A stretch of DNA of 64,000 nt from the NCBI RefSeq assembly GCF_024223415.1, contig NZ_CP100500.1, one strand, 5' to 3'. The notes beneath the pieces were generated by a model. The model had not been told where the DNA came from. It worked only from the letters and a program-made list of their open reading frames with translations, and searched no databases. This DNA is from Escherichia coli (GTDB taxonomy: Bacteria > Pseudomonadota > Gammaproteobacteria > Enterobacterales > Enterobacteriaceae). The first letter of the stretch is position 1; the number at the start of each line of letters is the position of its first letter. The position numbers and the translations under genes were made by a program. Shown in pieces: positions 5,020-28,036 of the stretch.

Positions 5020-5352
5020 GTTTTGTAACCTGTTGTTAATTACTTCCAATCTCACCGCTTGGGGCATGGATGGGGCAAACTCACTCAATTTCTGGTTTAA
5101 AATGGATACCTGATCCTGAAAGTTTTCTGCCATCCACGATCCGTAAACGCGATAACATGTTTTGTCTTCGCTTTGCTCATAGGAAGAGTGAACTCTTTTG
5201 TTAGCCTGGGGTTCCTTCTGATCATTATTGTTCCTGCCTTTATCTCTTGCCACGCCAGAGCCCCCTGGATACACATACACCAGGATGAAAACGGTGAGTT
5301 GTGTTCAAACTGTAGTACAATTCTCTCCAGTATGAACAGGAAAGAATATGCT

Positions 5353-5685
5353 ATGAACCCTTATATTTATCTTGGTGGCGCAATACTTGCAGAGGTCATT
5401 GGTACAACCTTAATGAAGTTTTCAGAGGGGTTTACACGGTTATGGCCCTCTGTTGGCACAATTATTTGCTATTGTGCATCATTTTGGTTATTAGCTCAGA
5501 CACTGGCTTATATACCTACAGGGATTGCTTATGCTATCTGGTCAGGAGTCGGTATCGTTCTGATTAGTTTGCTTTCCTGGGGATTTTTTGGCCAACGACT
5601 GGACTTGCCAGCCATCATAGGCATGATGTTGATTTGTGCCGGTGTGTTAGTCATTAACTTGTTGTCACGAAGCGCACCGCATTAA
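5353..5685 (+). CDS. emrE: SMR-family multidrug efflux transporter, EmrE-like (110 aa)
   Basis: MNPYIYLGGAILAEVIGTTLMKFSEGFTRLWPSVGT... near-identical to recalled K-12 EmrE (2 substitutions near C-terminus); start taken from ORF track frame. Confidence 0.85.
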   Translation: MNPYIYLGGAILAEVIGTTLMKFSEGFTRLWPSVGTIICYCASFWLLAQTLAYIPTGIAYAIWSGVGIVLISLLSWGFFGQRLDLPAIIGMMLICAGVLVINLLSRSAPH

Positions 5686-5853
5686 AAAATAATCATCCTT
5701 GAGATAACAGGAATCTGATTTGTGCATATTATGGCTAATGTTCGGGGCAACTTTATAATTATGATTGCATTTGCGCGATCATTGCGCCTTTTTGCATAAT
5801 GAGATCAATGCACATCAAATAAAATAACGATAGGTCACAACAAAGAGGTTTTT

Positions 5854-6405
5854 ATGAAAAAACTTATCGTTTCAAGTGTATTGGCATTCATAACATTTTC
5901 TGCGCAGGCCGCAGCATTTCAGGTCACTAGTAATGAAATAAAAACAGGAGAGCAACTTACAACGTCTCATGTATTTTCTGGATTTGGGTGTGAGGGGGGT
6001 AATACATCGCCCTCATTAACCTGGTCTGGTGCTCCAGAAGGCACCAAAAGCTTTGCCGTAACTGTGTATGATCCAGATGCGCCTACAGGCAGCGGATGGT
6101 GGCACTGGACTGTTGCTAATATTCCAGCAACGGTAACATATTTGCCCGCTGATGCAGGAAGACGTGATGGTACAAAACTTCCGACTGGTGCTGTCCAAGG
6201 CCGAAATGATTTTGGTTATGCGGGATTTGGTGGAGCATGTCCTCCCAAAGGAGATAAACCCCATCATTACCAGTTTAAAATATGGGCTCTAAAAACTGAT
6301 AAGATTCCTGTGGATTCTAATTCCAGCGGAGCGTTAGTTGGTTATATGCTTAATGCCAATAAAATTGCAACCGCTGAGATAATACCCGTTTATGAGGTAA
6401 AGTAG
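5854..6405 (+). CDS. ybcL: Periplasmic PEBP/YbhB-YbcL family protein with signal peptide (183 aa)
   Basis: ORF track; N-terminal signal peptide MKKLIVSSVLAFITFSAQA; PEBP-type motifs (DPDAP, GxHHY). Confidence 0.75.
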   Translation: MKKLIVSSVLAFITFSAQAAAFQVTSNEIKTGEQLTTSHVFSGFGCEGGNTSPSLTWSGAPEGTKSFAVTVYDPDAPTGSGWWHWTVANIPATVTYLPADAGRRDGTKLPTGAVQGRNDFGYAGFGGACPPKGDKPHHYQFKIWALKTDKIPVDSNSSGALVGYMLNANKIATAEIIPVYEVK

Positions 6406-6414
6406 GATAAGAGT

Positions 6415-7212
6415 ATGCTGGCAAAAGATAGGACTAACCTAAAGATTGAAGAAATACGGATGCATAAACATCATGAGATTCACAGGGTTAAGCCTCTTAT
6501 GCCAGCTTTATGTCGTATCCGTCAGGGAAAAAAAATTATCAATTGGGAGACGCATAGTCTAACTGTTGATAATAATCAGATAATATTATTTCCCTGTGGA
6601 TATGAATTTTATATTGCGAATTACCCAGAAGCAGGTCTTTATCTTGCAGAAATGCTTTATTATCCCATTGATCTAATTGAAAAGTTCCAAAATCTTTATG
6701 CGATAACCGATCAAATTCGTAACACGACAGGTTTCTGCTTACCTCAGAATCCCGAGTTAATATATTGTTGGGAGCAACTAAAAACATCTATTTCCCGAGG
6801 CTTCTCAACGCAAATTCAGGAACACTTAGCAATGGGCGTTCTACTTTCATTAGGAGCACATCATGTTAATTGTTTACTTTTATCAGATAGTAAACAATCA
6901 TTAATAAGTCGTTGTTATAACCTAATGCTATCCGAACCTGGAACAAAATGGACAGCAAACAAGGTAGCGAGATATCTCTACATTTCTGTTTCCACATTGC
7001 ATCGCCGTCTGGCAAGCGAGGGAGTAAGTTTTCAAAGTATATTGGACGACGTGAGGTTAAATAATGCGTTGTCTGCTATACAAACGACAGTAAAACCCAT
7101 CAGCGAGATTGCCAGGGAAAATGGTTACAAGTGTCCTTCTCGTTTTACTGAAAGGTTCCATAATCGTTTTAAGATAACACCAAGAGAGCTAAGAAAAGCG
7201 TCCAGAGAGTAA
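6415..7212 (+). CDS. ybcM: AraC/XylS-family transcriptional regulator (265 aa), YbcM-like
   Basis: ORF track; C-terminal AraC-type HTH region ([27 protein letters not shown]...[19 protein letters not shown]). Confidence 0.7.
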
Positions 7213-7503
7213 AAGTATTTTATGAAGGAGCAACAGCATAGATTTTTATTTTGGAAAATAAATACGGCATACTCAACCTATTGGAGCCTGAACAATCCGG
7301 TGACTTCTGCGCTAATCGGGGACGTTTATAAGCACATATAATTGATACTATCTTCCTCCATCACAATTTCAGAAATGCACGTGTGATTTTTTTGCATCCG
7401 GCGTTTGGACTATGTGGAGTTCAAGAGTGGGAAAGTTACAAGAGGTTGAGGGGATAATTAAAGGGATGCTTATGACATTAGATATCCGGATAGGTACGGA
7501 TAT

Positions 7504-7543
7504 CGTTGTTATTAAATCTAGTTCGTTGTTATTAAATCTAGTT
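7504..7543. repeat. Perfect tandem direct repeat, 2 x 20 bp (cgttgttattaaatctagtt)
   Basis: Read directly in sequence within the AT-rich non-coding stretch. Confidence 0.85.
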
Positions 7544-8175
7544 TATACGTTAAGATGCAGCTACAGCAGAAATTGCCACTGTTAATTTTTTCATCGTGAG
7601 CCTTTTATTTGAACTATTATTTAAAAATGATGTCACTGCACTACAAATATTCATCCAATCAATGAGATTATTTCAAGATGTAAGTTTTAGTTTCTCATTT
7701 AAATTGTGAAGTAGATCCCTATCTTTATCTGAACTGTTTCTATTGCACACAATGCATGACTATTTTGTGAACGAATATAAATTTGGTAGTTAAATTATAT
7801 TAAAGGTTGTTATTTATGATTGACTCATAATTTATTTATTTAATTTAAATAGCCTAGAAATAACCATGGAAATTATTTGCATGATGTTTGTTTAGATTTA
7901 TTAATGTAATTGAGGTGGTTTTATTTAATACGCAATATAGCGCCGCTTGATATTAGTTCTATTTTTTTTGCGTAAGATAGATGAGACAAACTGAGACGCA
8001 TAATGGTTTGCAAGGCTCTAATACTTTGATGTTGAGGATGTGATGGGGCATGTACGGGGCATAGTACAATGATGTCCATGCTGGTGTAGATAATCTCCAG
8101 GCTTATCCGGTGCGCCGTAAAACCCCGTCCTTCAGGGCAGGGATATAAGGCGTGGTTTTCCACCTGACCAGGTGT

Positions 8176-8595
8176 TTGCTGTTGTTCAATGTATTGGCGG
8201 ATGACGGATATTGGCGCACCTCCGCAGCTACTGGCAAAATAGCCAGGACTCCACAAAACGCCTTTGTAGTAATACCTGACTGCAATATCTGGTCGATCTC
8301 GTCGCAGTCACCTACCCGATACGCCTTTGAGGCTGTTTACCAGACTGGATATCGCCAGTTTGGGAGGATAGTTAATTAACAAATGGACGTGATCTGGTTC
8401 GCCATCCATTTCAACCAGTTCAGCTTCAAAATCAGCACATACATTTGAAAAGTAAGTGCGTAGTTTTTCTGTCGCGTCATGGTCAAAAATCTGACGTCGG
8501 TATCTGGTGACAAAGACCAGGTGAACATGCATCAGGAAAACACAATGCCTTCCACGCCGGATATCGGTTTCTTTTTTCACAGACCAAAGTATCAT
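8176..8595 (-). pseudogene. tnpA: IS200/IS605 Y1 transposase TnpA, disrupted (split over two frames)
   Basis: ORF 8308..8595 carries the HVHLL HuH motif; conserved WSPGYFASSCGGAPISVIRQYIEQQ is in another frame (ORF 7921..8256) and reads through without a nearby stop. Confidence 0.7.
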
Positions 8596-8602
8596 TTGGC
8601 CT

Positions 8603-9811
8603 GTGAAACGACTACAAGCATTTAAATTCCAGTTAAGACCCGGTGGTCAACAGGAGCGTGAAATGAGGCGCTTCGCAGGCGCATGTCGTTTCGTTTTCAA
8701 TCGTGCTCTGGCACGTCAGAATGAGAATCATGAGGTCGGTAATAAATACATCCCTTACGGGAAAATGGCTTCCTGGCTGGTTGAGTGGAAAAATGCCACT
8801 GAAACGCAATGGCTTAAAGATGCCCCGTCACAGCCATTGCAACAGTCACTGAAAGACCTTGAGCGGGCTTACAAAAACTTCTTCCAGAATCGGGCTGCTT
8901 TTCCCCGATTCAAAAAGCGGGGACAGAATGATGTATTCCGCTACCCGCAGGGCGTTAAGCTCGATCAGGAAAACAGCCGTATTTTTCTGCCGAAACTGGG
9001 CTGGATGCGCTACCGGAACAGCCGTCAGGTCACGGGTGTTGTGAAAAATGTCACTGTCAGCCAGTCCTGCGGTAAGTGGTACATCAGTATTCAGACAGAA
9101 AGTGAAGTATCAACTCCGGTTCACCCTTCAGCATCAATGGTCGGGCTGGATGCTGGCGTGGCTAAACTCGCCACGCTGTCAGATGGCACAGTCTTTGAGC
9201 CTGTAAACAGTTTTCAGAAAAACCAGAAGAAGCTGGCGAGACTTCAGCGACAGTTAAGCCGCAAGGTCAAATTCAGCAACAACTGGCAGAAGCAGAAACG
9301 CAAAATACAGCGACTGCATTCCTGTATCGCAAATATCCGCAGGGACTACCTTCACAAAGTCACAACGACCGTCAGCAAAAACCACGCAATGATAGTCATT
9401 GAGGATTTGAAGGTCAGCAACATGTCAAAGTCAGCAGCGGGTACGGTCAGCCAGCCGGGGCGCAATGTCCGGGCAAAATCAGGTTTAAACCGTTCGATAC
9501 TGGATCAGGGCTGGTATGAAATGCGCCGCCAGCTTGAGTACAAGCAGCTCTGGCGTGGCGGTCAGGTGCTTGCTGTTCCGCCAGCGTACACAAGCCAGCG
9601 TTGCGCGTGCTGTGGTCATACAGAGAAAGAAAACCGCCTGTCACAAAGTAAATTCAGATGCCAGGTATGTGGATATACAGCGAACGCCGATGTAAATGGC
9701 GCTCGTAACATTTTAGCGGCGGGGCACGCCGTTCTTGCCTGTGGAGAGATGGTGCAGTCAGGCCGCCCGTTGAAGCAGGAACCCACCGAAATGATTCAGG
9801 CGACAGCCTGA
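8603..9811 (+). CDS. tnpB: TnpB (IS605 OrfB family) RuvC-like RNA-guided endonuclease (402 aa), apparently intact
   Basis: ORF track; N-terminal [13 protein letters not shown]; Ruv[19 protein letters not shown], RuvC-II IEDLKV, zinc finger CACCGH...CQVCG, Ruv[13 protein letters not shown]. Confidence 0.9.
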
Positions 9812-9850
9812 ACGTAGCAGGGATCCTCGTCCTTCAGGGCGTGGAGGATG

Positions 9851-14628: not shown

Positions 14629-15038
14629 CAGACTGGGTCCTGAATCAAAGAAGGGGAGAGTAACGACTCTTTCCAGGCATCGGCAATATTACGCATTAAT
14701 GCTTCCACTTCTTCGACTGCGGAGACATCGTTGCGTAAATTGGCTTGCAGCAAGCGCCTGACCATATAGCTATAAAGAGCAATCAAGTTTTGGGTTAATT
14801 CGTCTTTGCTCTCTTCATCAAGACTCACCCGCAGTCCGTTCTCAATGATGTTGATCGCTTTTGACAAAGAGACGCCTTTGCCTTGCTGATTGTTGTCCTG
14901 CATAAACAGGCGCGCTCTAACCAGTGCGCTCAGCACTCCATCAAATAGCATGGTGACCAGCTGCTGCTGGCTGGCGCTCATTACGGCGCTTTCGACGCCA
15001 ATTTGTGCATAGGCTTTTGAGCCGCTCGCGGTATACAT
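14628..15038 (-). CDS. fliS: Flagellin-specific export chaperone FliS
   Basis: ORF track; position between fliD and fliT. Confidence 0.9.
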
Positions 15039-15052
15039 GCTGACCTCCGTGA

Positions 15053-16465
15053 TCAGGAATTACTCATTGCAGTAAATTGTTGGCTGAGATAGGTACTGGT
15101 GTTATTCAGTTTGCTCATCATGGTATCTAATTGCGTAAACTGTGCAGTGTAACGCGCCACGGTGTCATCAATGCTGGCACTGACGGATAGATACTGTTTG
15201 GTTAGTTTTTTCAGTGTGGCGTTAATACTGTCCTGTGCGCTATCAATAATGCCATCATCGGCAAGGTAACCTTTTACCTCGGTGGCAATTTTGGTGGTAA
15301 TTCCTGTTTCTTTACCATCGCCTACCAGCAATTCACGTACGGATGCTGTATTTTCATTCAGGACTTTTTTGAGTTTATCATCATCAATTTTCAGCTTACC
15401 CGTCGTGCCGTCCTGCTTAATCCCGATCTCGTTTAATGTTTTGAAGGCACCGTCGCTGGCACCGTTTGCAAATTGTGCGCGGATGCCGCTTTGAATTGTA
15501 CGTACAACGCTGTCTCCGAGAAGTGCACCATTATTTTTATCTTGTGCTTCAGCACCTGGGTCTACTTCTTTATATTTTGTCAGGGTGTTAAAGGTGTCAA
15601 TGAGGGAGTTATATGAATCCACCCAGCCTTTAATTGCTTCGGTTGCTTTATCGTTGCTTTTTGTCACAGTGACCCGGACGTCAGTGACTTTTTTGGTCAA
15701 ATCGAGAGTCACTCCCTGAGGAGCATCGGTAATTTTGTTACTTGAACGTTCAATATCGATACCGTTAACGTTTAGCTGTGCATTTTGCGCGTTAACCAGT
15801 TCCTTCATATTCCCGGTGTTGGTCTTGCTGTCATAAGCCAGCAGATCATTTAATTTACTGTCACCCTCAACAGATATGGTCATTTTATTGGCCAGACCTT
15901 CACTGGCGGTCAATACCAATTGATAGTCACCATCTTTGACTTTAACGATACTAGCGGAAATTCCACTATCGGCATCGTTAATGGTTTTGCTGATCTCATC
16001 CAATGACGTCTGATCTTTATTGAGCTTGATTTCCAGCGGCTCTTTACGGCCGTCTTGGGTAATTTTTATTGTGCGTGTATCTGATGACTCATCACCCAGT
16101 GCATCTTTTGTTGATGCAATGATTGTCGGGGAATCAGTTCGTAAAGATTGCGCCTGCGCCAGTTGGGTTACGCTGATGGTATAGATACCGGGGGCAGCAC
16201 CTGCTTCGGTGGAAACTTTAAGGTCTTCATTGCTACTGGTAACGGTAGTGCTTTTGAACAGATCGGCTTTATTTAACGCAGTATTTGCAGTCTGGAATTT
16301 TTCTAATGCACTTTTTAATGTGCCATAGGCTGTCAGACGTGCGGTGTTGTCACTCTGTTGCTGAGTAATTGGGTTTAAGCGTTTTTTTTCAGCGATGGTC
16401 AGGTTGTTTAGCAATGTATCCAGCGGCAGATTCGAACCAACGCCAAGAGATGTAAATGAAGCCAT
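15053..16465 (-). CDS. fliD: Flagellar filament cap protein FliD
   Basis: ORF track 15053..16543; chosen start MASFTSLGVGSNLP has an upstream aggaa SD; earlier in-frame ATG would run through the promoter. Confidence 0.9.
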   Translation of the reverse strand: MASFTSLGVGSNLPLDTLLNNLTIAEKKRLNPITQQQSDNTARLTAYGTLKSALEKFQTANTALNKADLFKSTTVTSSNEDLKVSTEAGAAPGIYTISVTQLAQAQSLRTDSPTIIASTKDALGDESSDTRTIKITQDGRKEPLEIKLNKDQTSLDEISKTINDADSGISASIVKVKDGDYQLVLTASEGLANKMTISVEGDSKLNDLLAYDSKTNTGNMKELVNAQNAQLNVNGIDIERSSNKITDAPQGVTLDLTKKVTDVRVTVTKSNDKATEAIKGWVDSYNSLIDTFNTLTKYKEVDPGAEAQDKNNGALLGDSVVRTIQSGIRAQFANGASDGAFKTLNEIGIKQDGTTGKLKIDDDKLKKVLNENTASVRELLVGDGKETGITTKIATEVKGYLADDGIIDSAQDSINATLKKLTKQYLSVSASIDDTVARYTAQFTQLDTMMSKLNNTSTYLSQQFTAMSNS

Positions 16466-16503
16466 ACCTAATTCCTTTTGATTGCAAACAGTAGATAAGC
16501 GGG

Positions 16504-16530
16504 TTATCGGCAATTTGTGCGCAAAGTTTA
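16504..16530 (-). promoter_or_regulatory. sigma28 (FliA) promoter for fliDST
   Basis: Minus-strand TAAA-N15-GCCGATAA read from sequence. Confidence 0.75.
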
Positions 16531-16623
16531 ATAGTTGATTCACGAAGATGATGCGCAGAGTAGAGTTGTATATTACGGATATTTCAGCCGTTAAGAAAAA
16601 ACAGGAGAGAAACTAAAATTTTC

Positions 16624-16650
16624 TAAAGTTCGAAATTCAGGTGCCGATAC
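16624..16650 (+). promoter_or_regulatory. sigma28 (FliA) promoter for fliC
   Basis: TAAA-N15-GCCGATAC read from sequence upstream of fliC. Confidence 0.75.
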
Positions 16651-16719
16651 AAGGGGTACGGTGAGAAACCGTGGGCAACAGCCCAATAACATCAAGTTGT
16701 AATTGATAAGGAAAAGATC

Positions 16720-18180
16720 ATGGCACAAGTCATTAATACAAACAGCCTGTCGCTGTTGACCCAGAATAACCTGAACAAATCTCAGTCTTCTCTTGGCTCT
16801 GCTATTGAGCGTCTCTCTTCTGGCCTGCGTATTAACAGTGCTAAAGATGACGCAGCAGGTCAGGCGATTGCTAACCGTTTTACGGCAAATATTAAAGGTC
16901 TGACTCAGGCTTCCCGTAACGCGAATGATGGTATTTCTGTTGCGCAGACTACTGAAGGTGCGCTGAATGAAATTAACAACAACCTGCAGCGTGTACGTGA
17001 ACTGACTGTTCAGGCAACTAACGGTACTAACTCTGACAGCGATCTTTCTTCTATTCAGGCAGAAATTACTCAACGTCTGGAAGAAATTGACCGTGTATCT
17101 GAGCAAACTCAGTTTAACGGCGTGAAAGTCCTTGCCGAAAATAATGAAATGAAAATTCAGGTTGGTGCTAATGATGGGGAAACCATCACTATCAATCTGG
17201 CAAAAATTGATGCGAAAACTCTCGGCCTGGACGGCTTTAATATCGATGGCGCGCAGAAAGCAACTGGCAGTGACCTGATTTCTAAATTTAAAGCGACAGG
17301 TACTGATAATTATCAAATTAACGGTACTGATAACTATACTGTTAATGTAGATAGTGGAGCAGTTCAAAATGAGGATGGTGACGCAATTTTTGTTAGCGCT
17401 ACCGATGGTTCTCTGACTACTAAGAGTGATACAAAAGTCGGTGGTACAGGTATTGATGCGACTGGGCTTGCAAAAGCCGCAGTTTCTTTAGCTAAAGATG
17501 CCTCAATTAAATACCAAGGTATTACTTTCACCAACAAAGGCACTGGTGCATTTGATGGCAGTGGTAACGGCACTCTAACCGCTAATATTGATGGCAAAGA
17601 TGTAACCTTTACTATTGATGCGACAGGGAAGGACGCAACATTAAAAACGTCTGATCCTGTTTACAAAAATAGTGCAGGTCAGTTCACTACAACTAAGGTT
17701 GAAAACAAAGCCGCTACAGCATCGGATCTGGACTTAAATAACGCTAAAAAAGTGGGTAGTTCTTTAGTTGTAAATGGCGCTGATTATGAAGTTAGCGCTG
17801 ATGGTAAGACAGTAACTGGGCTTGGTAAAACTATGTATCTGAGCAAATCAGAAGGTGGTAGCCCGATTCTGGTAAAAGAAGATGCAGCAAAATCGTTGCA
17901 ATCTACTACCAACCCGCTCGAAACCATCGACAAGGCATTGGCTAAAGTTGACAATCTGCGTTCTGACCTCGGTGCAGTACAAAACCGTTTCGACTCTGCT
18001 ATCACCAACCTTGGCAACACCGTAAACAACCTGTCTTCTGCCCGTAGCCGTATCGAAGATGCTGACTACGCGACCGAAGTGTCTAACATGTCTCGTGCGC
18101 AGATCCTGCAACAAGCGGGTACCTCTGTTCTGGCGCAGGCTAACCAGACCACGCAGAACGTACTGTCTCTGCTGCGTTAA
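16720..18180 (+). CDS. fliC: Flagellin (486 aa); conserved N/C termini with variable central H-antigen domain
   Basis: ORF track; MAQVINTNSLSLLTQNNLNKSQ ... QNVLSLLR. Confidence 0.95.
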   Translation: MAQVINTNSLSLLTQNNLNKSQSSLGSAIERLSSGLRINSAKDDAAGQAIANRFTANIKGLTQASRNANDGISVAQTTEGALNEINNNLQRVRELTVQATNGTNSDSDLSSIQAEITQRLEEIDRVSEQTQFNGVKVLAENNEMKIQVGANDGETITINLAKIDAKTLGLDGFNIDGAQKATGSDLISKFKATGTDNYQINGTDNYTVNVDSGAVQNEDGDAIFVSATDGSLTTKSDTKVGGTGIDATGLAKAAVSLAKDASIKYQGITFTNKGTGAFDGSGNGTLTANIDGKDVTFTIDATGKDATLKTSDPVYKNSAGQFTTTKVENKAATASDLDLNNAKKVGSSLVVNGADYEVSADGKTVTGLGKTMYLSKSEGGSPILVKEDAAKSLQSTTNPLETIDKALAKVDNLRSDLGAVQNRFDSAITNLGNTVNNLSSARSRIEDADYATEVSNMSRAQILQQAGTSVLAQANQTTQNVLSLLR

Positions 18181-18222
18181 TTTACACTTATCGCTCAAAC
18201 CCCGCCAACGGCGGGGTTTTTT
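18181..18222 (+). ncRNA. Candidate FliX-type sRNA derived from the fliC 3' UTR
   Basis: Position only (fliC 3' UTR to terminator); based on published 3'-UTR-derived flagellar sRNAs, extent not determinable here. Confidence 0.3.
18198..18222 (+). terminator. Rho-independent terminator of fliC
   Basis: aaaccccgcc-aacg-gcggggtttttt hairpin plus T-run. Confidence 0.8.
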
Positions 18223-22323: not shown

Positions 22324-23072
22324 GTGCCATTGAAGTTAAGAACCTGGTGAAAAAATTTCACGGTCAGACGGTGCTGCACGGTATCGACCTTGAGGTAAAG
22401 CCTGGCGAAGTGGTGGCAATTATCGGTCCGAGTGGTTCCGGCAAAACCACGTTGCTACGCAGCATAAATCTGCTGGAACAACCCGAAGCGGGAACGATCA
22501 CCGTTGGCGATATCACTATTGATACTGCACGTTCATTAAGTCAGCAAAAATCGCTGATTCGCCAGTTGCGTCAGCACGTCGGGTTTGTCTTCCAGAACTT
22601 TAATTTGTTTCCGCATCGTACGGTGCTGGAAAACATTATTGAAGGGCCGGTGATCGTCAAAGGCGAACCGAAAGAAGAGGCCACGGCGCGCGCTCGCGAG
22701 CTGTTGGCGAAAGTTGGGCTGGCCGGTAAAGAAACCAGCTATCCACGTCGTTTGTCTGGCGGTCAACAGCAACGTGTTGCGATTGCACGTGCGCTGGCAA
22801 TGCGTCCTGAGGTGATTTTGTTTGACGAGCCAACGTCGGCGCTGGATCCAGAGCTGGTGGGCGAAGTCCTGAACACCATCCGTCAGCTGGCGCAGGAAAA
22901 GCGCACGATGGTGATTGTGACGCACGAAATGAGCTTTGCCCGGGATGTTGCGGACCGGGCGATCTTTATGGACCAGGGGCGGATAGTCGAGCAGGGGGCC
23001 GCAAAAGCGTTATTTGCCGATCCCGAGCAGCCTCGCACCCGCCAGTTCCTCGAGAAGTTTCTGCTGCAATAA
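22320..23072 (+). CDS. tcyN: L-cystine ABC transporter ATP-binding protein TcyN/YecC
   Basis: ORF track; Walker A GPSGSGKTT, signature LSGGQQQRV. Confidence 0.9.
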   Translation: MSAIEVKNLVKKFHGQTVLHGIDLEVKPGEVVAIIGPSGSGKTTLLRSINLLEQPEAGTITVGDITIDTARSLSQQKSLIRQLRQHVGFVFQNFNLFPHRTVLENIIEGPVIVKGEPKEEATARARELLAKVGLAGKETSYPRRLSGGQQQRVAIARALAMRPEVILFDEPTSALDPELVGEVLNTIRQLAQEKRTMVIVTHEMSFARDVADRAIFMDQGRIVEQGAAKALFADPEQPRTRQFLEKFLLQ

Positions 23073-23301
23073 TAAGAAAAAATCAGCCCCGACGATTCAC
23101 CTGTCGGGGCTGGACGCCATTTCAAGCCTGATAAAACTGCTTAACAAATCAGCATAACTCATTAATAACATAAGAGAATGCGATGGCTTGCAAAAGTAAT
23201 TCATTGCCTGAATAATATAAATTATATATAAATCTTATTTATGTGATAGTTTGAATTATCATTATAAATGATACTCACTCTCAGGGGCGTTGCGGTTTAC
23301 T

Positions 23302-24024
23302 ATGCAGGATAAGGATTTTTTCAGCTGGCGTCGCACGATGCTGTTGCGTTTTCAGAGGATGGAGGCCGCAGAAGAGGTCTACCATGAAATAGAGTTTCAG
23401 GCTCAGCAGCTGGAGTACGATTACTATTCGTTATGTGTTCGCCACCCGGTACCATTCACGCGACCTAAAGTGGCTTTCTACACCAATTACCCTGAGGCGT
23501 GGGTTAGTTATTATCAGGCAAAAAACTTTCTCGCAATTGATCCGGTGCTGAACCCTGAAAACTTTAGTCAGGGCCATTTAATGTGGAATGATGACTTATT
23601 CAGCGAAGCACAGCCGTTATGGGAAGCCGCGCGCGCACATGGTTTACGCCGCGGTGTCACTCAGTATTTAATGCTGCCAAACCGGGCGCTGGGCTTTTTG
23701 TCCTTTTCCCGTAGCAGCGCGCGCGAAATACCCATTCTTAGTGATGAACTGCAATTAAAAATGCAGTTACTGGTGCGCGAAAGTCTGATGGCTCTGATGC
23801 GTTTAAATGATGAAATAGTGATGACGCCAGAGATGAATTTCAGCAAGCGCGAAAAAGAAATTTTGAAATGGACGGCGGAAGGGAAGACATCAGCAGAGAT
23901 AGCGATGATTTTGTCAATCTCTGAGAATACGGTCAATTTCCATCAGAAAAACATGCAGAAAAAAATCAATGCACCAAATAAGACCCAGGTTGCCTGTTAC
24001 GCGGCCGCTACTGGCTTAATTTGA
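23302..24024 (+). CDS. sdiA: LuxR-family quorum-sensing regulator SdiA (240 aa)
   Basis: ORF track 23290..24024; start MQDKDFFSWRRTMLLRFQ; C-terminal LuxR HTH. Confidence 0.9.
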   Translation: MQDKDFFSWRRTMLLRFQRMEAAEEVYHEIEFQAQQLEYDYYSLCVRHPVPFTRPKVAFYTNYPEAWVSYYQAKNFLAIDPVLNPENFSQGHLMWNDDLFSEAQPLWEAARAHGLRRGVTQYLMLPNRALGFLSFSRSSAREIPILSDELQLKMQLLVRESLMALMRLNDEIVMTPEMNFSKREKEILKWTAEGKTSAEIAMILSISENTVNFHQKNMQKKINAPNKTQVACYAAATGLI

Positions 24025-24051
24025 TCGCTTTTCTTTCTGCGTGCCAGATGC

Positions 24052-24090
24052 AAAAACCGGCTGAAAGGCACGCTATCAGCCGGTTTTATA
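24052..24090. terminator. Bidirectional terminator between sdiA and yecF
   Basis: aaccggctga...tcagccggtt inverted repeat flanked by A/T runs. Confidence 0.6.
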
Positions 24091-24315
24091 TTACTGACGG
24101 TAGGCTTGTTTAATTTGCTTAACCGTTTTGGAAAATACTGCAGCCTGGGTTTCGTCTTCGATCAGCGCAAGCTGTTTTTCCATCTTTAACATCACGCGGC
24201 CCGCGTCAGCTTGTCCCATCGCCTGTAGCATCAGCGTCAGCATCGCTTTCAGGCAGGAGACTTCATTTGCCAGTTCTTGATTATTCTCGGCAGTAGAAAA
24301 ATCAGGCGTACTCAT
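24091..24315 (-). CDS. yecF: Small protein YecF (74 aa)
   Basis: ORF track; conserved position next to sdiA. Confidence 0.8.
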
Positions 24316-24480
24316 TTATTTTCCTCGTCATGTTGCAATGAAAATTTGCGGTGAAAAATGTTAAGGCGGCGGAGTATACCATAAGCTTTGCTAAAAATAG
24401 CAGTGGTTGTTTTTTGAGCGTGATATCGGCAGTGCTATAAAATACGTTAATATAATGACCAATTAGGTAATGACTCCAAC

Positions 24481-24984
24481 TTACTGATAGTGTTTTATGT
24501 TCAGATAATGCCCGATGACCTTGTCATGCAGCTCCACCGATTTTGAGAACGACAGTGACTTCCGTCCCAGCCTTGCCAGATGTTGTCTCAGATTCAGATT
24601 ATGTCGCTCAATGCGCTGAGTGTAACGCTTGCTGATAACGTGCAGCTTTCCCTTCAGGCGTGATTCATACAGCGGCCAGCCATCCGTCATCCATACCACG
24701 ACCTCAAAGGCCGACAGCAGGCTCAGAAGACGCTCCAGTGTGGCCAGAGTGCGTTCACCGAAGACGTGCGCCACAACCGTCCTCCGTATCCTGTCATACG
24801 CGTAAAACAGCCAGCGCTGACGTGATTTAGCACCGACGTAGCCCCACTGTTCGTCCATTTCAGCGCAGACAATCACATCACTGCCCGGTTGTATGCGCGA
24901 GGTTACCGACTGCGGCCTGAGTTTTTTAAGTGACGTAAAACCGTGTTGAGGCCAACGCCCATAATGCGTGCACTGGCGCGACAT
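24481..24984 (-). CDS. insB: IS1 InsB (transposase C-terminal part)
   Basis: ORF track 167 aa. Confidence 0.9.
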
Positions 24985-25178
24985 CCGACGCCATTCATGG
25001 CCATATCAATGATTTTCTGGTGCGTACCGGGCTGAGAGGCGGTGTAAGTGAACTGTAGTTGCCATGTTTTACGGCAATGAGAGCAGAGATAGCGCTGATG
25101 TCCGGCAGTGCTTTTGCCGTTACGCACCACGCCTTCAGTAGCGGAGCAGGAAGGACATCTGATGGAAATGGAAGCCAC
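24903..25178 (-). CDS. insA: IS1 InsA (91 aa)
   Basis: ORF track; zinc-finger [28 protein letters not shown]. Confidence 0.9.
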
Positions 25179-25550
25179 GCAAGCACCTTAAAATCACCAT
25201 CATACACTAAATCAGTAAGTTGGCAGCATTACCGACCAATTAATATTTTTATCATGAATGTTTTTTGCCCGTATTGTTCGGGTTAATTAATGTTACATAT
25301 TCAGCGGGCTGATTTTCATTTTTGCTGAATAAAGTCAATTTTTGTCACATTTCATCGTAGGGCTTACTGTGAAACGATCCGGTAAGCCGTTGGTGACGGG
25401 CGTGACCATAACTGTGGACAATCGAATTGACAAAAACGAGAGAAAAATCGAATACCCACCATTTTTAACGTTTCAAAGTTGCAATAAAAACCGCTAATAT
25501 ACGAATGACTAACTATCAGTAGCGTTATCCCTATTTCTGGAGATATTCCT

Positions 25551-26207
25551 TTGATCAACGTTCTACTTGTTGATGACCACGAACTGGTGCGCGCAGGGAT
25601 ACGACGCATTCTGGAAGATATAAAGGGTATAAAAGTCGTCGGTGAGGCATCGTGCGGTGAAGACGCCGTTAAGTGGTGCCGGACAAATGCCGTTGACGTG
25701 GTGCTAATGGACATGAGTATGCCGGGCATTGGCGGTCTTGAGGCGACGCGTAAAATCGCGCGTTCCACAGCTGATGTCAAAATCATCATGCTTACCGTCC
25801 ATACAGAAAACCCTTTACCAGCGAAAGTCATGCAGGCCGGTGCTGCGGGCTACCTCAGCAAAGGCGCGGCTCCGCAGGAAGTCGTGAGTGCGATTCGTTC
25901 TGTCTATTCAGGGCAGCGTTACATTGCTTCTGACATCGCTCAACAAATGGCGTTAAGCCAGATCGAACCAGAAAAAACAGAAAGCCCATTTGCCAGTTTG
26001 TCTGAACGTGAATTGCAGATTATGCTGATGATCACCAAGGGCCAGAAGGTCAATGAGATCTCAGAACAGCTCAATCTCAGTCCGAAAACGGTGAACAGCT
26101 ACCGCTATCGTATGTTCAGTAAACTAAACATTCATGGCGATGTTGAGCTGACTCACCTGGCAATTCGCCATGGTCTGTGTAATGCGGAGACATTATCAAG
26201 TCAGTGA
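25551..26207 (+). CDS. uvrY: Response regulator UvrY (BarA/UvrY two-component system)
   Basis: ORF track; receiver domain plus LuxR-type HTH. Confidence 0.95.
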
Positions 26208-28036
26208 GTGATCAGTTTGACGCAAAAGCGTTTTTAAAAACCGTAACCAGCCAGCCAGGCGTTTATCGCATGTACGATGCTGGTGGTACGGTTATCTATG
26301 TCGGCAAAGCGAAAGACCTGAAAAAACGGCTTTCCAGCTATTTCCGTAGCAACCTCGCTTCGCGCAAAACCGAAGCGCTGGTCGCCCAGATCCAGCAAAT
26401 TGATGTAACGGTTACTCATACAGAAACCGAAGCGCTGTTGCTGGAACACAACTACATCAAACTCTATCAGCCGCGTTACAACGTTTTGCTACGCGATGAT
26501 AAATCTTATCCTTTTATCTTCCTGAGTGGCGATACCCACCCGCGTCTGGCGATGCATCGTGGTGCGAAGCATGCCAAAGGTGAATATTTCGGCCCGTTCC
26601 CGAATGGCTATGCCGTACGTGAAACACTGGCGCTACTGCAAAAGATTTTCCCCATTCGCCAGTGCGAAAATAGTGTTTATCGCAATCGCTCGCGTCCGTG
26701 TCTGCAATATCAGATAGGGCGCTGTCTGGGACCGTGCGTTGAAGGACTGGTGAGTGAAGAAGAATACGCTCAGCAGGTCGAGTATGTGCGCCTGTTTTTG
26801 TCTGGCAAAGATGATCAGGTGCTTACGCAACTCATTAGTCGTATGGAAACTGCCAGCCAGAATCTGGAGTTTGAAGAAGCGGCACGTATTCGCGACCAAA
26901 TTCAGGCGGTGCGACGCGTCACCGAAAAACAGTTTGTTTCCAATACCGGCGACGACCTTGACGTTATTGGTGTGGCGTTCGATGCGGGCATGGCTTGTGT
27001 CCACGTATTGTTCATTCGTCAGGGCAAAGTGCTCGGCAGCCGCAGCTATTTCCCGAAAGTGCCTGGCGGTACGGAACTGAGCGAGGTGGTAGAAACCTTC
27101 GTAGGTCAGTTCTATTTACAAGGCAGCCAGATGCGCACCTTACCGGGTGAGATCCTGCTCGATTTTAATCTTAGCGATAAAACGCTGCTCGCCGATTCCC
27201 TTTCAGAACTGGCGGGACGCAAGATTAATGTTCAAACCAAACCTCGCGGCGATAGGGCGCGTTATCTGAAACTCGCGCGCACCAATGCGGCGACGGCCTT
27301 AACCAGCAAACTTTCGCAGCAATCTACCGTTCACCAGCGACTGACCGCGCTTGCCAGCGTGTTGAAATTGCCGGAAGTGAAGCGGATGGAGTGCTTTGAC
27401 ATCAGCCATACCATGGGCGAACAAACCGTCGCTTCCTGTGTGGTGTTTGATGCTAACGGCCCGCTGCGTGCGGAGTATCGGCGCTATAACATTACAGGCA
27501 TCACGCCGGGCGATGATTATGCGGCGATGAATCAGGTGCTGCGTCGGCGTTATGGTAAAGCCATTGACGACAGTAAGATCCCGGATGTGATCCTTATCGA
27601 CGGCGGCAAAGGCCAGCTTGCGCAGGCGAAAAATGTCTTCGCCGAACTGGATGTCTCATGGGATAAAAATCATCCGCTGCTACTTGGCGTTGCCAAAGGA
27701 GCAGATCGTAAGGCTGGACTGGAAACGCTGTTCTTTGAGCCGGAAGGTGAGGGATTTAGTTTGCCGCCAGATTCACCCGCGCTGCATGTTATCCAGCATA
27801 TTCGCGATGAATCACATGATCACGCGATTGGCGGGCACCGTAAAAAACGGGCGAAGGTCAAAAATACCAGTTCCCTGGAAACCATTGAAGGCGTCGGGCC
27901 AAAACGTCGGCAAATGTTGTTGAAATATATGGGCGGTTTGCAAGGTTTACGTAACGCCAGCGTCGAGGAAATTGCAAAAGTGCCGGGTATTTCGCAAGGT
28001 CTGGCAGAAAAGATCTTCTGGTCGTTGAAACATTGA
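26204..28036 (+). CDS. uvrC: Excinuclease ABC subunit C (610 aa)
   Basis: ORF track; GIY-YIG N-terminus ([23 protein letters not shown]); overlaps uvrY stop. Confidence 0.95.

Follow-up and report, generated by a model that had tools for sequence, protein, structure and literature searches.

The stretch of DNA analysed here, referred to as the window, comprises 64,000 nucleotides of the Escherichia coli chromosome and is colinear with reference genomes on both sides, for more than 60 kb between the fli operons and torYZ. Our interest lies in the segment between yecF and uvrY. The yecF gene (24091-24315, minus strand), which encodes a DUF2594 protein, possesses its own GAGGA ribosome-binding site, and both the gene yecU and an insertion sequence lie upstream of it. 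On the other side, uvrY (25551-26207, plus strand) is intact and codes for 218 amino acids from a TTG start, as seen from the open reading frame and from annotation at homologous loci. Between the two genes sits a complete IS1 of 768 bp (24466-25233), the single IS1 copy in the window, whose transposase genes lie on the minus strand.

All testable defining features of IS1 are found in this element. Its terminal inverted repeats, the right end (IRR, 24466-24488) facing yecF and the left end (IRL, 25211-25233) facing uvrY, agree at 20 of 23 positions (GGTAATGACTCCAACTTACTGAT versus GGTAATGCTGCCAACTTACTGAT). The insA gene (24903-25178, minus strand) starts with GTG and encodes 91 amino acids matching Pfam families PF03811 (E 6e-20) and PF12759 (E 5e-30), while the insB reading frame (24481-24984, minus strand) matches PF03400 (E 1e-74); both products match NCBIfam model NF033558. 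The programmed -1 frameshift motif TTAAAAAAC, of the A6C type, is located at 24921-24929 on the minus strand (element position 305), and once the -1 fusion is built at this motif, an uninterrupted InsAB´ of 232 amino acids results. The length of 768 bp, the imperfect inverted repeats of about 23 bp, the insA and insB´ arrangement with A6C frameshifting, the size of InsAB´ and a 9-bp target duplication at an AT-rich target are all those of the IS1 family, and no difference from the family is present in the element itself. The complete 768-bp IS1 with insA and insB reported in the preliminary description is thus borne out, with its exact span now fixed.

The window element is 100% identical, over the full 768 bp, to chromosomal IS1 copies in many E. 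coli chromosomes. It differs by about 9% from the IS1A/IS1B type of K-12, and copies elsewhere labelled IS1A or IS1B by PGAP are 90.9-91.1% identical to it. Intact reading frames and ends, together with 100% identical copies at many sites, give indirect support to the view that this copy may be competent for transposition. Copies of this variant are labelled by PGAP simply as "IS1 family transposase".

IS1 is flanked by two copies of the 9-mer GACCAATTA, at 24457-24465 on the left and 25234-25242 on the right. These are the only plus-strand copies of GACCAATTA in the whole window, and beyond these 9 bp the flanks are no longer identical. Two given 9-mers would match by chance with a probability of about 4e-6. 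A single copy is present at the empty site of a near-identical relative, the genome L011, so that identical flanking 9-mers, already recognized in the preliminary description, represent a true target-site duplication. Between IS1 and the uvrY start codon (TTG, 25551) there are 317 bases, precisely the distance given before; between IS1 and the yecF start codon (ATG, 24315) there are 150 bases, so the previously assigned proximity is right and the count of 151 has to be lowered by one. The spacer between yecF and uvrY has a GC content of 36%, which falls to 22% within 30 bp on either side of the target.

The target is not plain intergenic DNA. At this spot RefSeq annotates a small gene, yecU (b4752, WP_000590347.1), in K-12 and in other genomes with the empty site. 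This gene has 58 codons and shares its strand with yecF, which follows immediately; the last 14 nt of yecU, stop included, overlap the start of yecF. When the open reading frame is rebuilt from its two parts (24302-24465 and 25243-25255, minus strand), it matches the whole of the YecU-like Pfam family PF23680 (positions 1-58 of 58, 150 bits, E 2e-44). The duplicated 9-mer corresponds to yecU codons 5-7, and 13 nt of unique sequence precede the break in the frame. What remains at the 5´ end is a reading frame of eight codons (25229-25255, minus strand), which starts with the ATG at 25255-25253, reads ATG ATA AAA ATA TTA ATT GGT CGG TAA (MIKILIGR) and terminates at a TAA inside the IRL. The other 54 codons, from codon 5 to the stop (24302-24465, minus strand; defined by annotation in empty-site genomes and by PF23680), lie beyond IS1, cut off from start codon and upstream DNA. 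IS1 thus destroys yecU and YecU is lost. Production of this protein was demonstrated in MG1655 by chromosomal epitope tagging and immunoblots (VanOrsdel 2018, PMC6001520). The preliminary description placed IS1 in a divergent control region of yecF and uvrY; the element does lie between these genes, but inside the yecU coding sequence, which had been overlooked.

A consensus scan of the minus strand between IS1 and yecF found no promoter scoring at least 9/12, although such a scan could miss one, and for this reason transcription of yecF probably starts upstream of yecU. IS1 is classically polar. We therefore suggest that the insertion, by placing 777 bp between yecF and its upstream promoter, probably lowers yecF expression. 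Some expression may be left over. Because the IS1 genes point in the same direction as yecF, read-through from insAB could supply it, and a weak minus-strand candidate at the junction near yecF, found by eye (TTGGAG-16-CATTAT, 8/12), might contribute as well. According to the preliminary description, expression of sdiA may be altered as well. This gene lies on the plus strand, convergent with yecF, and its promoter is upstream of 23300; since the promoter is thus more than 1.1 kb away and past yecF, we consider a direct effect unlikely from the geometry. No Rfam match with E <= 1 was found within 23000-26500.

For uvrY, the question is which parts of its control region are still connected to it. 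The 458-bp spacer is 99.8% identical to that of K-12, and coordinates and data obtained for K-12 uvrY can therefore be transferred to the window. In a reporter study (Krol 2018, PMC6307784), fragments comprising -358 to -9 and longer ones had equal basal activity at 37 C, while fragments -260 to -9 and -196 to -9 were about 1.8-2-fold more active (1.8-fold for the -260 construct). Deletion of hns raised uvrY reporter activity 2.4-3.9-fold, and the full region was strongly repressed at 26 C and pH 8.4, where its activity depended on NhaR and SdiA. Binding of NhaR was assigned to the interval between -358 and -196, SdiA-like boxes to -102 and -415, and an NhaR-dependent transcription start to T-542. 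Of the sites named NhaR3/4 and H-NS2/3 upstream of uvrY, most are in silico predictions from this one single-author study (PMC6307784).

In this frame, IS1 abuts position -317 and comes to lie between the proximal uvrY promoter region (within -196 to -9) and the distal regulatory region. On the far side from uvrY there is now an SdiA-box-like motif, AAAATTTGCGGTGAAAA (24341-24357, plus strand; -433 in empty-site numbering), which is probably the distal SdiA site reported at -415 (PMC6307784). We propose that uvrY keeps its proximal promoter region; the K-12 fragments -358 to -9 and -196 to -9 show full activity. At the same time, uvrY would be uncoupled from everything beyond -317, that is, from the distal SdiA-like box and the NhaR-dependent start near -542, and also from read-in transcription from the sdiA side and from part of the AT-rich tract presumed to be occupied by H-NS and NhaR.

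The closest functional precedent comes from K-12 itself. In some stocks of MG1655, a spontaneous IS5 insertion at -260 upstream of uvrY abolishes the effect of nhaR on the Csr circuit (Krol 2018, PMC6307784), and an arrangement denoted "uvrY-IS5-yecU" was recorded independently by a second group in MG1655 topA mutants (bioRxiv 10.1101/2024.10.07.617030). In both the K-12 stocks and the window, an insertion sequence sits in the same 458-bp spacer between yecF/yecU and uvrY, the proximal uvrY promoter stays attached and the upstream AT-rich region with its H-NS, NhaR and SdiA sites is displaced. The two cases differ in that the window carries an IS1, 57 bp further away from uvrY (-317), and in that IS5 lies upstream of yecU whereas IS1 lies inside it. 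Further, IS5 arose in a laboratory lineage, IS1 in a natural isolate. By analogy with IS5, we would expect uvrY expression to be retained or mildly raised and to become less dependent on NhaR and H-NS, possibly with some addition from an outward hybrid promoter of low strength. Alternatively, nothing might change, because -317 falls between the -358 construct, with unchanged activity, and the -260 construct, with 1.8-fold higher activity. Altered expression of uvrY and yecF is thus plausible by analogy, as the preliminary description had supposed. For uvrY alone, however, we would put the chance that IS1 causes any measurable change at even or slightly below.

There are two other ways in which IS1 might act on uvrY. 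Firstly, it might chiefly provide a new outward hybrid promoter, leading to constitutive extra transcription of uvrY and to more UvrY, CsrB and CsrC. Outward -35 boxes in IS1 ends are known to build hybrid promoters with a suitably spaced -10 box (Prentki 1986, as cited in PMC8764528), and in ST131 an upstream IS1 was accompanied by an increase of afaA by about 7 log2 (PMC8764528). In the window, the IRL contains an outward -35-like TTGGCA at 25220-25225, 8 bp from its tip, and a consensus scan returned a candidate IS1/flank hybrid promoter pointing at uvrY (25220-25249, plus strand, 9/12). The -10-like boxes are contributed by the flank: AATATT at a spacing of 16 nt and TATTTT at a spacing of 18 nt. 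Overall, seven promoter-like sites were observed in the scanned region where 2.2 were expected. The likeness to hybrid promoters such as that of afaA therefore consists in an outward TTGGCA in the IS1 end followed by a -10-like hexamer 16-18 bp further on. The difference is that both -10 candidates are weak (4/6 each) and miss the optimal spacing of 17 nt, and that uvrY, preceded by promoters of its own, lies at a distance of about 300 bp. Transcription would begin some 295 nt before uvrY, where the DNA is AT-rich and a predicted target of H-NS. Moreover, an upstream IS1 in ST131 does not always activate: osmB went down and ugd was unchanged (PMC8764528). Activation as the principal effect is consequently rather unlikely in our opinion, although such a promoter, weak and directed at uvrY, might make a minor contribution.

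Secondly, IS1 might lower uvrY expression by cutting off P1 (located before sdiA), the NhaR-dependent start near -542 and the distal SdiA site, with polarity on incoming transcription as an additional factor. The upstream starts and the distal SdiA motif are described for uvrY, and the long fragment does depend on NhaR and SdiA at 26 C and pH 8.4 (PMC6307784); all these elements are now beyond IS1. In the same study, however, fragments devoid of anything upstream of -358, -260 or -196 had equal or higher activity at 37 C as well as under stress, and uvrY was not silenced by IS5 at -260. We regard repression as improbable. Retained or mildly raised expression, uncoupled from the distal region, is in our view the most likely outcome.

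The origin of the insertion was traced with the help of the empty site, which was rebuilt by deleting IS1 together with one 9-mer. Its 800-bp version was searched against complete RefSeq E. coli genomes (n=5,426), and 5,361 of them match it in one place, with up to 99.9% identity. The 458-bp spacer alone served as a second query, with which the search tool was unable to bridge an IS1; 5,375 genomes match, only about 22 of them split in two places and about 5,350 unsplit. Taken together, the site is empty in about 98.5% of the 5,426 genomes, K-12 included; in agreement with the preliminary description, MG1655 has no IS1 at the site. The left junction, searched as one piece with a 140-bp query, is absent from the 5,426 complete genomes, as four apparent matches are two-piece joins to IS1 copies elsewhere. 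Exact scans with junction 41-mers (the left junction being ACGTTAATATAATGACCAATTAGGTAATGACTCCAACTTAC) likewise found no occurrence in GTDB representative genomes and none in JGI metagenome contigs, and an exact look-up of the 75-aa open reading frame spanning the junction gave no match.

The nearest complete genomes are just 99.5-99.7% identical over 20 kb, and the lineage of the source strain is for that reason unrepresented among complete genomes. A much closer relative was reached through an exact match to the window flagellin, the product of an intact fliC (486 aa, 16720-18180). This genome, L011 (GCA_958305785.1, contig CATQUZ010000003.1), has 5 mismatches in the 17,746 bp to the left of IS1 and none in the 3,724 bp to the right, which corresponds to 99.97-100% identity to the window flanks. 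Its site is empty: a lone GACCAATTA at L011 17738-17746 is common to the two flank alignments, and no base is lost. A Shigella origin, suspected at first from the 99.5-99.7% identity to complete E. coli genomes, was rejected in view of the intact fliC, this near-identical assembly and the single IS1 of the window. The empty site in so close a relative and the absence of the junction elsewhere argue for a simple, recent and strain-specific transposition. The insertion is shown by these searches as private to the strain or to a very narrow lineage, at the level of available sequences. The preliminary description had proposed a simple, relatively recent transposition and no rearrangement junction, had called for comparison with empty sites in other genomes and had made its reading depend on the duplication and on relatives free of the element. 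The colinear flanks, the duplication, the single 9-mer of L011 and the relatives lacking IS1 all speak in its favor.

Although this very insertion is confined to one strain, the region as such has received IS1 repeatedly. We looked for IS1 in the sdiA-yecF-yecU-uvrY region of the other complete E. coli genomes and give positions relative to the uvrY start. Copies in the same orientation near the site were found in 17 genomes; as the search joins only pieces on the same strand, it was repeated with IS1 flipped, which added 5 more genomes. Insertions upstream of uvrY are located at -723 in EC102, at -409 in Br_190_kylling, at -338 in YPE10, at -266 in YZLc23-1 (in the opposite orientation), at -35 in FDAARGOS_1291 and at -34 in TUM1857. 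In 2020N21-246 and AVS0786, different IS1 variants have entered a common target, TGATCAACG, at +1 in opposite orientations, and in N25 (+79) and GN03551 (+144) the element lies inside uvrY. In ABWA45, an IS1 is accompanied by a 345-bp deletion in sdiA and lacks a duplication; otherwise duplications of 8-9 bp accompany the insertions in other strains. Since positions and IS1 sequences differ (90.9-96.1% identity), these insertions are independent of the one in the window. Those of YPE10 and Br_190_kylling are inside yecU and split it too, whereas several others sever or interrupt uvrY, which the window IS1 does not.

At least 12 independent insertions have thus occurred within about 900 bp, with one 9-bp target used twice and two insertions 1 bp apart. 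There is also an apparent orientation bias of 14:4. We compared this with the occupancy expected from 59,374 chromosomal IS1 places in the 5,426 genomes, a crude test that ignores phylogeny. On this basis there is no enrichment of IS1 either in the searchable region, where 22 genomes were observed against about 35 expected with phylogeny ignored, or in the spacer plus the first 152 bp of uvrY, where, again with phylogeny ignored, 10 were observed against 7.2 expected. The idea of a population-level IS1 hotspot or of selection was dropped, since on this count IS1 occupies the region no more often than its density across the genome predicts. That certain sites were hit more than once looks like the ordinary preference of IS1 for AT-rich DNA and is no evidence of selection.

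These observations also bear on the age of the insertion. One could imagine an old insertion that became fixed in the lineage and has been kept by selection, given the many independent IS1 insertions at the region in other strains and the IS5 insertions between uvrY and yecU that arose in two K-12 laboratory lineages. Nevertheless, the window IS1 is still 100% identical to copies elsewhere and its two flanking 9-mers agree perfectly, it is missing from a relative that differs at 5 positions in 21 kb, the junction occurs in no other searched genome or metagenome contig, and IS1 occupancy at the region does not exceed the genome-wide average. An old, selectively maintained insertion is accordingly very improbable. 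Weaker still is the notion of a rearrangement or deletion junction, the end of a composite transposon or a misplaced repeat in the assembly: IS1-linked adjacent deletions are known nearby, as in E. coli B with its 41-kb deletion from uvrY to hchA (PMC3032704) and in ABWA45, but a perfect 9-bp duplication, which an assembler error would not make, contiguous L011 flanks sharing the 9-mer with zero bases lost, colinearity over the whole window and the single IS1 within it leave hardly any probability for such an origin, and we regard these possibilities as excluded.

A simple IS1 insertion, as a structural reading, is therefore secure, and the event is an ordinary, textbook one, a fresh instance of a well-known kind. 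The following course of events accounts for our observations. A common intact IS1 variant transposed recently into a very AT-rich target at the 5´ end of yecU, generating the 9-bp duplication GACCAATTA without rearrangement or deletion. As a whole, we consider it very probable that a recent simple insertion, with loss of yecU, likely reduction of yecF and uncoupling of uvrY from distal control, is the best explanation.

As a response regulator, UvrY drives CsrB and CsrC and thereby determines how active the global regulator CsrA is; CsrA in turn governs carbon metabolism, biofilm, motility and virulence. Differences between strains in the regulation of uvrY can hence confound comparisons of isolates, as documented for K-12 stocks with IS5 at this place. 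The window adds a natural isolate to these cases, with an IS1 located 57 bp further upstream than the K-12 IS5, with yecU knocked out and with yecF probably disturbed. One might go further and regard the natural insertions between yecU and uvrY, that of the window included, as selected switches that free the BarA/UvrY-Csr system from H-NS, NhaR and SdiA. We hold this to be improbable. If it were true, these insertions would be comparable to those upstream of flhDC that activate motility, and loss of YecU, perhaps along with loss of YecF expression, might belong to the selected phenotype. Otherwise, the insertion is an IS polymorphism of the routine sort. Its main practical value lies in the near-identical relative with the empty site, which comes close to an isogenic control already at hand for studying what YecU, YecF and the distal uvrY region do.

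Targets immediately upstream of uvrY are reused by IS1 at the level of the individual site. The IS1 copies of strains 2020N21-246 and AVS0786, each at 2119-2886 of its locus (L009 and L013, respectively, two loci extracted from other E. coli genomes), have the identical 9-bp target, TGATCAACG, which corresponds to 25552-25560 of the window and includes part of the start codon of uvrY or all of it. These strains are unrelated, the elements are inserted in opposite orientations and the IS1 variants themselves differ. In another pair, FDAARGOS_1291 and TUM1857, IS1 is found at positions -35 and -34 relative to the uvrY start, only 1 bp apart.

Orientation of the insertions around sdiA-uvrY appears biased. 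Across complete E. coli genomes, within the region equivalent to window 23200-25700, insAB points away from uvrY in about 14 independent events (the window counted) and in the opposite direction in about 4 (binomial p = 0.03), where genomes were grouped into events partly by inference. At the sdiA side of the region, strain ABWA45 (locus L014, 1167-2268) was verified to carry IS1 without a target duplication, together with a 345-bp deletion that takes the 3' half of sdiA. IS1 appears to be located in or next to sdiA in several more genomes, with positions outside ABWA45 deduced solely from the span of the match and the names of annotated features; the genomes with apparent sdiA insertions are those of matches H1, H2, H4, H5, H10, H12-14, H18, H178 and H179 of the IS1-plus-flank searches, plus L014.

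Two further features of the yecU-uvrY region in the window deserve mention. A promoter-like site, TTGAGC-18-TAAAAT (24414-24443, plus strand), lies inside yecU and is directed at uvrY. Because its predicted start is a few bases or less from the IS1 insertion point, any transcript from this putative promoter would now enter IS1 directly. Between yecU and uvrY, a 38-aa ORF (25293-25409, minus strand) is labeled by PGAP as "transcriptional regulator" or "hypothetical protein" in many genomes, often with a flag for incompleteness or for a stop codon within the frame. The window's copy contains such an internal stop (MVTPVTNGLPDRFTVSPTMKCDKN*...), and the annotation is probably spurious or decaying.

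Elsewhere in the window, fliC and the 3' end of fliD (15014-18200) are unlike those of the reference genomes used, a divergence which is the expected hypervariability of the H antigen. The fliC gene is intact (486 aa), and 261 blocks of the public collection contain its exact protein. Between fliE and yedK there is a variable island (about 4.7 kb, 5157-9849), present also in WCHEC020031 and at least in part in the near-identical relative L011 (GCA_958305785.1). Its annotation in WCHEC020031 comprises an emrE pseudogene, ybcL, ybcM and an IS200/IS605 tnpA pseudogene adjoining an InsQ/TnpB gene. ECONIH4 is devoid of this island and harbors other remnants at the same place.

Finally, IS1 is also found within uvrY itself, at +79 in strain N25 (locus L004, 2197-2964; window-equivalent 25630-25638) and at +144 in strain GN03551 (locus L008, 2262-3029; window-equivalent 25695-25703). 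Both strains are human clinical isolates, N25 from CSF and GN03551 from the bloodstream, and they represent invasive isolates with a natural knock-out of uvrY through IS1.
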